Below, in pieces: positions 6,824 to 8,029 of a stretch of DNA of 64,000 nt. The position numbers and the translations under genes are program-made. Numbering within the stretch: the stretch's first letter is position 1; every line of letters starts with the position of its first letter. The notes beneath the pieces were generated by a model, which had not been told where the DNA came from, made no database searches, and saw only the letters and a program-made list of their open reading frames with translations. Source of the stretch: Dehalococcoidia bacterium (GTDB taxonomy: Bacteria; Chloroflexota; Dehalococcoidia; SM23-28-2; RBG-16-64-32); assembly GCA_963665775.2 (NCBI GenBank), contig CAXXTF010000002.1:128001-192000 (forward strand), read 5' to 3'.

Positions 6824-6858
6824 GTCCCGCTTCTTCATTACAGCAACTGTCTTGAGAG

Positions 6859-7822
6859 TCAAGAGGGATGAGAGGCGACCTTCGGAGCCAGGTCGCGCCA
6901 AGGCGAGCCATTCTTGACCATGGAGTTGAGGATGACGAGCAGCTTGCGCATGCAGGCTGTGAGGGCCAGCTTCTTCGGCTTACCAGCGGCTGTTAGCCGC
7001 TGGTAGAAGTCCCGGATGACAGGGTTGAAGCGGCTGGCTGTCAAAGCTCCCATGTACAGGGCGGCTCGGACCCGGGCACGTCCACCCCAGACACTGCGTT
7101 TGCCCCGCAGAGTGCCGCTGTCCCTGTTGAAGGGGGCCACACCCACCAAAGCGGCGATCTGCCGACGATCCAACGTGCCCAGCTCCGGTAGGTAGGCCAA
7201 GAGGGTGAGGGACAGCTGCTCTCCCACGCCGGGGACGCTGCGCAGGAGGGTCATCCTTCTCTCGCCACACGGGGCTCTGACGAAGGGTTCGCCGCAGACC
7301 CTCACCCAGGTCGTCCAACTCCCGCTCCAGCCATGCAATGTGAGCCTCGATGCGGGGACGCACGGCAATGGTAGCAGCGCCCAGGCGGTTCTTCTCCGAG
7401 ACCAGCATGGTCATCACCTGGTGTCTGCGAGCGACCAGCGAGTTGAGCCCCTGGGTCTCGGCGTCTCGCAGAGGACGCACGGGAGGTCGGACCGCTTCGG
7501 CGAAGTGAGCCAGGACCGCTGCATCCAGAGCGTCGGTCTTGGCCAGCTTCCCGGTGGCCTTGGCGAAGTCCCGCACCTGGCGGGGGTTGACCACGACCAC
7601 TGGTAGCGCCTCGGCTGCTAGGGCGGCCACCAACGGCAGTTCCAATCCGCCCGAAGCCTCCAGCAACACCATGACCGGTTCAAGGGCCTTCATCTGGGAG
7701 ACCAGGTGCCGGACCCCTGTCTCGTCATGAGAGACCTCCCATTTGTCGTCCGTGGGACGGACGGCGACGTCCAACTGAGCCTTGGCTACATCAATGCCTA
7801 CGTAGGTCGCTTCCTGCTCCAT
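6859..7822 (-). pseudogene. IS110 DEDD recombinase (~320 aa) with a single +1 frameshift
   Basis: YVGIDVAK, LLEASGG, AKTDALDA (DEDD), NRDSG (catalytic Ser), ACMRKLL. One extra base in the G3 run at 7248-7250, possibly a sequencing error. Confidence 0.9.
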
Positions 7823-7839
7823 GAGCACCTCCTGCGAAT

Positions 7840-8000
7840 TACTGGCCCGTCCTTGCGAGATGCGGGCTTGGTTGGCCCAGGCAACTGTTCGGGCTCCATT
7901 CGGGATGGGCGCGGCGACCCTCGCTGTAATGCGGTCTTCCAAGACCAGGGAGGAAACGGTCTGCCGCGCCCCGATCCGACTTTGAAGTGATTGTCCCATA
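7840..8000 (-). ncRNA. Predicted bridge RNA (target-binding loop 7907-7971, donor-binding loop 7845-7894)
   Basis: Two stems with internal loops whose strands match the target flanks and the IS ends. Transcript boundaries are approximate. Confidence 0.85.
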
Positions 8001-8029
8001 CCAAAACCAAGATACAAGGAGGAAGCGAC

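Follow-up and report, generated by a model that had tools for sequence, protein, structure and literature searches.

We describe an insertion sequence in a 64,000-nt stretch of DNA from a Dehalococcoidia bacterium (hereafter the window, meaning the whole stretch at its full length). The element occupies positions 6842-8016, is read on the minus strand and measures 1175 bp with one copy of its CT core counted. It is very probably an IS110-group element of the IS621 type that carries a bridge RNA, and this sole copy is most likely stranded and inactive with its guide intact, because a +1 frameshift lies between the DEDD and Ser domains of its recombinase and no further copy was seen in the genome. 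The bridge-RNA mechanism has been published knowledge since 2024, and the element adds another case of the IS110 group.

An earlier note on this DNA had proposed that the left end of the element encodes a target-binding and a donor-binding loop laid out as in IS621, and each string that it cited is present at its minus-strand coordinate. The layout proved to be right, RNA guidance being a general published property of the IS110 group. A fold-and-covariance alignment of the left ends and a comparison of the flanks of other copies, both of which the note had suggested as checks, found compensatory base pairs and guides that follow the flanks: loop 1 tracks the flanking DNA across 37 specificities, and loop 2 follows the right end.

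Ends of the element and its empty site

On the minus strand the insertion reads CTTCCTC-CT-TGTATC ... CAAGACAGTTG-CT-GTAATG. The left target flank (LT), CTTCCTC, lies at 8019-8025, where it overlaps the Shine-Dalgarno sequence of a neighbouring plus-strand gene; it is followed by the left copy of the CT core (8017-8018) and by the left end (LE), which begins with TGTAT (8012-8016). At the other side, the right end (RE) ACAGTTG, which is the left donor, was placed at 6844-6850 by sequence reading and comparison within the clade, and is followed by the right CT copy (6842-6843) and the right target flank (RT) GTAATG (6836-6841). The core thus stands at both junctions, as read from the sequence and from contigs of the empty site, TGTAT... 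at one end and ...ACAGTTG at the other do not form an inverted repeat, and the insertion is scarless at the dinucleotide CT, without terminal inverted repeats.

The unoccupied site was seen directly when Logan contigs of four public runs were aligned to positions 6500-8400. In one contig each of the runs X1, X2 and X20, position 6841 is joined to 8017 and exactly 1175 bases are missing, with a two-base ambiguity; X2 and X20 come from other studies, and X20 is an RNA-library run. At this joint a closely related population carries the site unoccupied, as CTTCCTC-CT-GTAATG, the sequence that the earlier note had given for the empty target. The empty-site contig departs from the window at a few positions near 6753-6762, and the flanks of the empty site were carried by none of the genomes of 30 relatives.

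Target-binding loop and flanking DNA

In IS621 the left target guide (LTG) reads in the sense of the top strand, to which the right target guide (RTG) is complementary, and both contain the core (Durrant et al. 2024, PMC11208160, and the IS621 structure paper). By this strand logic the 5′ side of loop 1 is therefore expected to resemble the left flank, and its 3′ side the reverse complement of the core plus right flank. The target-binding loop module of the window (7907-7971, minus strand, as are all features of the element) consists of an outer stem, 7958-7971/7907-7919 with a bulged A, and an inner hairpin at 7932-7947. On the 5′ side, the predicted LTG TTTCCTC-CC (7948-7956, with TTTCCTCC at 7949-7956) matches the left flank at six of seven positions and would form a U-G wobble at the remaining one, -7. 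On the 3′ side, the predicted RTG CATTAC-AG (CATTACAG, 7924-7931) is the reverse complement of CT-GTAATG at 8/8 positions, which include 6/6 non-core positions of the right flank. Beside it, CGA at 7921-7923 is a candidate handshake guide of the target loop, whose C could pair with the last G of the RE.

A chance test with 20,000 shuffles of the window's 194-nt left end gave an LT match of at least 7/8 in 1502 cases, an RT match of 8/8 in 42 and an RE match of 8/8 in 55. The ease with which the LT match alone arises, together with an unexceptional fold energy (z = -1.04) and the lack of RNA evidence, would suit an alternative in which the left-end structure is a mere 5′ leader or a DNA-level binding site of the recombinase, the protein picks the target and the matches are a coincidence or a by-product. 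Against this alternative, all three matches together were found in 0 of the 20,000 shuffles, and the recombinase is homologous to those of IS621 and ISCro4, for which RNA guidance has been demonstrated experimentally. It is further opposed by the relatives of the element, in which recombinases of 75-90% identity are found at clearly different sites, and these sites follow the sequence of the loop.

The relatives are the best 80 of 475 that were returned by a scan of genome contigs with P0004, an intact database homologue of the recombinase; these 80 show 75-90% identity, and nearly all of them belong to metagenome-assembled genomes of Dehalococcoidia or Chloroflexota. With the window they make 81 elements, and 73 of these could be parsed by regular expressions for both ends and the two loops. 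Six loci (L024, L030, L046, L047, L048 and L053) were dropped for want of a recognisable left end or target loop, L051 as its contig ends before the right end and L059 as the patterns failed. The 73 parsed elements reduce to 56 different guide/flank sets with 37 different guide pairs among them, and one representative per pair was tested. Non-core matches averaged 4.84 of 7 on the left (2.50 after permutation, sd 0.19) and 4.81 of 6 on the right (1.77 after permutation, sd 0.21), and on neither side did any of 10,000 permutations reach as high a value; allowing wobble pairs gave the same outcome. With 37 guide classes tracking unrelated host flanks in this manner, we regard the leader or binding-site alternative as extremely improbable, and we return to the bridge RNA as the preferred reading.

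Position by position, the agreement between guide and flank is 0.24 at -7 (background 0.18), 0.41 at -6 (background 0.31), and 0.62, 0.89, 0.84, 0.97 and 0.86 from -5 to -1 (background 0.24-0.70); to the right of the core it is 0.97, 0.84, 0.92, 0.89 and 0.92 from +1 to +5 (background about 0.3) and 0.27 at +6 (background 0.21). Based on this agreement across the 37 guide pairs, the guided positions of the clade would be about 5 + CT + 5. At least four of these five positions are matched on both sides at 38 of the 56 sites. Copies that have a guide in common occupy different sites bearing the predicted motif, as exemplified by the guide GTTTCTC-CT (expected right side CT-TTCTG), which was found at ten different sites. 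The putative target handshake position carries C in 37/37 classes and the RE ends in G in 37/37 representatives, bases that hardly vary; in either loop, what stands next to the core-binding AG would permit the handshake pairing that has been described for IS621. A preference for ribosome-binding sites was rejected, as the start of a long open reading frame (ORF) on the opposite strand within 22 nt was found for 14 of 66 distinct left-flank sites and for 1917 of 8146 control CT sites, which is no enrichment.

Some of the insertions in other genomes have unusual surroundings. The left flank of the element at L035:2280-2320 copies the 5′ half of the DNA that encodes its target-binding loop (...GGCAGACCGATTGTGCCT, directly followed by TGTATC), so that this element adjoins a sequence identical to its own LTG, and its right flank matches the guide only partly. 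In L052, the right flank begins after the right end with CT-TGTATCGCC, which resembles the start of a left end and is a poor match to the RTG of that element. The copies L009-L012, L017 and L022 lie in one genome and have about 100 identical right-flank bases, some of them also sharing the left flank, before they diverge; these copies therefore sit within another repeated sequence.

The donor-binding loop and the ends of the element

The donor-binding loop module (7845-7894) is highly conserved and has an outer stem, 7890-7894/7845-7849, and an inner hairpin, 7875-7878/7864-7867. Its predicted left donor guide (LDG), ACAGTTG-C (ACAGTTGC, 7881-7888), consists of the right-end sequence followed by the first base of the core. 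Within the predicted right donor guide (RDG) AUCUC-GCAAG (7852-7861), GCAAG at 7852-7856 pairs with the left-end sequence CTTGT, one of the pairs being a G-T wobble. The adjacent GA (7850-7851) is a candidate handshake guide of the donor loop, whose G could pair with position -1 of the left target; that position is C (32) or T (5) in 37/37 classes, and the donor handshake bases hardly vary.

Among the 56 unique elements, the LDG equals RE plus C in 51, and it covaries with the RE in two variant types, ACAGCTG (2) and ACGGTTG (3). The guides of the second loop match the element's own ends, and variation is so low that the evidence from covariation is thin. The two bases that precede GCAAG vary freely within the clade. 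For IS621, the structure paper describes an RDG in which A157-U158/C162-G165 pairs with donor T14-A13/G11-C8, with a non-canonical G161:T12 pair and with U159-U160 flipped out; this pairing spells the same right donor CTTGTAT and the same GCAAG with its wobble, and the flipped-out dinucleotide corresponds to the two freely varying bases of the clade. The earlier note had claimed that the element possesses a target and a donor specificity of its own. The claim of a separate donor specificity is weak, since the right donor and the RDG are those of IS621 and members of the clade hardly differ in the donor loop.

Conserved fold of the left end

The minimum free energy fold of the 203-nt left end alone recovers the stem and hairpin of loop 1, and its energy, with the z-score given above, is uninformative by itself. 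The window's left end was considered together with 49 distinct left ends that could be delimited (n = 50), and the RNAalifold consensus of this alignment consists of two modules, each with an outer stem and an inner hairpin separated by an internal loop, as had been drawn in the earlier note from the single sequence. Among the cells of the 29 consensus pairs, 99.4% can pair, compared with 37-43% when the partner is slid by one to three columns. Compensatory changes are present in 9/29 pairs (22 cells), a number matched by 0/500 shuffles, and they affect six of the 12 pairs of the loop-1 outer stem. RNAalifold additionally pairs UUGC with GCAA within loop 2, which we take to be a side effect of the two guides reading one junction.

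The sole Rfam match, to the family sX15 (RF02234), a Xanthomonas small RNA, spans 7871-7985 on the plus strand, antisense to the target-binding loop. Identity with sX15 was rejected: the match scores 35.5 bits with a gathering score of 55, lies on the opposite strand and is treated as chance, and the sX15 locus on plasmid pXCV183 is located upstream of an IS3-type orfAB rather than an IS110 element.

A recombinase gene split by a frameshift

The recombinase gene starts with an ATG at 7820-7822, preceded by the Shine-Dalgarno sequence AGGAGG (7828-7833). Its N-terminal part of 191 aa (7250-7822) holds a DEDD RuvC-like domain (PF01548, 9.2e-25) with D11, E55, D97 and D100, and its C-terminal part of 129 aa plus stop (6859-7248) holds a Tnp domain (PF02371, 2.1e-19) with the catalytic serine, S235 in P0004 numbering. 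The latter part is coding from 7248 to 6862 and has its stop codon at 6859-6861. Together the two parts give 191 + 129 = 320 aa, the size of P0004, which is 99% identical. The only two sequence matches of P0004 in the PDB are the transposases of ISCro4 (9.9e-42) and IS621 (8.1e-41), and its D11, E55, D97, D100 and S235-G236 align with D11, E60, D102, D105 and S241-G242 of IS621, of which D11, E60, D102, D105 and S241 are named as catalytic (Hiraizumi et al. 2024, PMC11208158). All of the catalytic D, E, D, D and Ser residues are thus present across the two ORF pieces of the window, in agreement with the motifs that the earlier note had recognised.

Between the two parts, a CCC run at 7248-7250 contains one extra C and causes a +1 frameshift. 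The window DNA reads GAC-CC-TCCTG here, and its C run exceeds that of 57/57 matchable relatives by one base; 57 of the 80 loci could be matched, and the other 23 gave no match to the regular expression. Comparison with P0004 and with these relatives confirms the single homopolymer frameshift that had been noted before. The copy in the window accordingly lacks one uninterrupted recombinase reading frame, which speaks against the activity of this copy and not against the kind of element.

Homopolymer errors are common in long-read assemblies. The extra C might have arisen in sequencing or assembly, or might belong to a minority allele; in that case the same bridge-RNA element would make a whole recombinase and could still be active. 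The otherwise intact ORF, which adds up to full length, would fit this explanation, as would the many database relatives that are likewise truncated, at 212-311 aa, maybe from such errors. It had been suggested that reads be checked at 7248-7250; the check was run on contigs instead, and across the C run the window shows no difference from those of X1 (7048-7335) and X2 (7166-7411), with no indel there. Contigs drop rare variants, so that minority alleles at the C run stay hidden in this comparison. As the contigs of two runs from two studies read alike at this place, the frameshift is probably real. The element also remains the sole copy, with one further exact match to the 11-mer target and 13 sites at one mismatch lying unoccupied in the genome. 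We therefore consider an active copy unlikely, and favour the stranded copy with a broken recombinase.

With guide modules that are intact and an ORF that is broken, the element might alternatively be a non-autonomous relic that supplies its bridge RNA in trans to a different recombinase of the same cell, and bridge RNA supplied in trans does work for IS621 (Durrant et al. 2024). In the 91%-complete genome, a tblastn search with P0004 found only the window locus and no other recombinase of the family, and a DNA search for a second copy of the element gave none, yielding elsewhere only a fragment of 85 nt with 78% identity. Use in trans is accordingly very unlikely, and a stranded, inactive copy remains our preferred reading. 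The fragment (G000:C1:609253-609340) corresponds to part of the recombinase gene, has no match at the protein level and may be a relic.

A predicted junction promoter and the proposed mechanism

The two halves of a predicted promoter lie at opposite ends of the element. TTGACT, the -35 half, is found at 6857-6862, where it overlaps the stop codon, and TATCTT, the -10 half, at 8009-8014, which corresponds to left-end positions 3-8. The predicted promoter is complete only on the circular RE-LE junction; in the integrated copy, no sigma-70-like site was found on either strand between 6700 and 8150. This arrangement is well conserved, with TTGACT or TTGACA at the right end of 70/73 elements, TATCTT in 57/73 and TATGTT in 12/73 left ends (69/73 together), and a spacer of 17 nt across the junction in 72/73 elements. 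In the published model, excision rebuilds a promoter that drives the bridge RNA (Durrant et al. 2024), and weak expression from integrated IS621 loci, as reported in 2026, agrees with such a geometry.

In the mechanism that we propose, the 194-nt left end would encode a bridge RNA of two modules, each with a stem, an internal loop and a hairpin. Loop 2 would bind the donor, its ACAGUUG-C matching the right end and its GCAAG forming pairs, one of them a G-T wobble, with the left-end CT-TGT. Excision, by analogy with IS621, would give a circle on which the -35 of the RE and the -10 of the LE form a promoter, and this junction promoter would drive the bridge RNA and the recombinase. A tetramer of the recombinase would then hold target and donor on the two loops, and strands would be exchanged at the CT core through a serine-DNA intermediate.

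Contigs of RNA libraries provide little information on transcription, and parts of the stretch without such contigs show neither expression nor silence. In the RNA-library run X20, one contig joins 6863 to 7876 and skips 1012 bases, with 22 letters on its shorter side. This joint may come from a deletion derivative in which the left end is retained along with the tip of the right end, or it may stem from another organism.

Observations that weigh against the assignment

Several observations weigh against the assignment to IS621-type bridge-RNA elements or limit the evidence for it. In the window itself, the second core base of the LTG is C rather than T. Across the clade, positions -7 and -6 barely exceed background, and seven of the 56 insertions (L013, L021, L033, L039, L042, L050 and L069) have no more than two of five matches on one side. 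Six of these seven match well on the other side, and they recall the "half-match" insertions that a 2026 preprint reports for IS621. The use of one guide at several sites could not be followed for the window element itself: no other copy with its exact target loop was found in metagenome contigs by an exact pattern search, and at up to two mismatches the loop was found only in the window's own genome, among 400 genomes of the class plus its own. On the donor side, one mismatch between LDG and RE occurs in 5/56 elements, and the helices of the donor module show almost no covariation because the module is near-invariant, a feature that was also noted on the donor side among IS621 relatives (Durrant et al. 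2024). The alignment fold predicts no conserved helix in LE 1-45, where a 5′ stem-loop like that of IS621 would lie, and several relatives have a deletion there. X1 may be the sample from which the window was assembled. The only signal from RNA libraries within the element is one Logan contig of 267 nt (7715-7981, run X19), which is identical to the window and covers both loops and 107 nt of the ORF; its strand, its ends and transcription cannot be read from it, and carry-over of DNA is possible. Finally, our literature search found no experiment on the element or its clade, and nothing relevant on bridge RNAs in sponges, the element sequence also being present in runs labelled sponge metagenome.

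Relation to known IS110-group systems

The element shares with IS621 of Escherichia coli the domains PF01548 and PF02371 with aligned DEDD and Ser residues, the CT core, and a bridge RNA in the left end in which the target-binding loop precedes the donor-binding loop. Further likenesses are the sense of the LTG and antisense of the RTG relative to the top strand, the right donor CT-TGTAT with an RDG whose GCAAG makes a G:T pair after an unconstrained dinucleotide, an LDG of 8 nt (A...C), and the promoter split across the RE-LE junction. In contrast, the protein alignment is a distant one (residues 1-307 of 320, 143.6 bits), the left donor is ACAGTTG and differs from that of IS621, and IS621 has a 5′ stem-loop, of which no conserved counterpart was found in this clade. 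IS621 is guided over 7 + CT + 2, with an LTG of nine and an RTG of four bases, compared with the about 5 + CT + 5 estimated here. IS621 inserts into a repetitive extragenic palindromic (REP) element, whereas the present element lies beside a gene start in a Dehalococcoidia host; moreover, the window copy is frameshifted, unlike IS621.

ISCro4 (PDB 9t56), for which only the protein was compared, is the best match in the PDB (residues 1-308) and has the same domain order and catalytic residues. The IS1111 group uses the same recombinase family and RNA-guided target choice (Durrant et al. 2024) but carries its RNA in the right end, whereas the present element would have it upstream of the gene in the left end, which is the arrangement of the IS110 group. 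In Durrant et al. 2024 a bridge RNA was predicted for 85.7% of IS110s. Our literature search found nothing on IS110 elements in Dehalococcoidia, and the supplementary orthologue tables of that paper may already list the clade.

Genomic context

The genome comprises 2.35 Mb in two contigs with 63.3% GC. The neighbouring gene (8030-9145, plus strand) encodes four XRE-type helix-turn-helix domains (PF01381, 4.1e-33, four stretches), and its ATG lies 11 bases from the element; its Shine-Dalgarno sequence, which the left target overlaps, stays with the gene. On the other side, a perfect 25-bp inverted repeat with a 22-nt spacer (6752-6823) lies 19 bases beyond the right target flank, and the departures of the empty-site contigs from the window (6753-6762) fall in its outer arm. 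The repeat is unique in the genome, which rules out a REP-like repeat.

A clade of differing guides and its implications

Two of the loci, both in other genomes, contain a second IS110-group element (L046:1230-2440 and L047:1220-2440) that is inserted in the opposite orientation inside the donor-binding-loop DNA of an element of the first family. The recombinase of this second family is about 40% identical to P0004. Its insertion point is CT, the reverse complement of the AG in ACAG-TTGC, between the two halves of which the insertion falls, and its first loop (AAGCAA-CT or TGGCAA-CT, with CGAAC-AG) matches the insertion site. From these matches, a bridge element of the second family appears to have been guided into the guide gene of a first-family element.

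More tentatively, and at what we would put somewhat below an even chance, the clade may constitute a natural reprogramming series, in which recombinases of 75-90% identity are combined with at least 37 target-guide pairs on a near-invariant scaffold, with roughly symmetric guidance over 5 + CT + 5 and no obligatory 5′ stem-loop, and may at the same time be the prey of a second IS110-group family that targets its donor-loop DNA.

For the host genome, the element is a single and probably dead insertion just upstream of a regulator gene, which opens no new question alone. It illustrates that a bridge-RNA element can be recognised, and its target and donor code read, from sequence alone, and its GC-rich clade in uncultured Dehalococcoidia extends the known range of such elements. 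The many natural guide pairs on one scaffold provide comparative data on which positions are guided and which are fixed. If the reading of the clade given above is true, one bridge element would have been inserted, under RNA guidance, into the guide gene of another.

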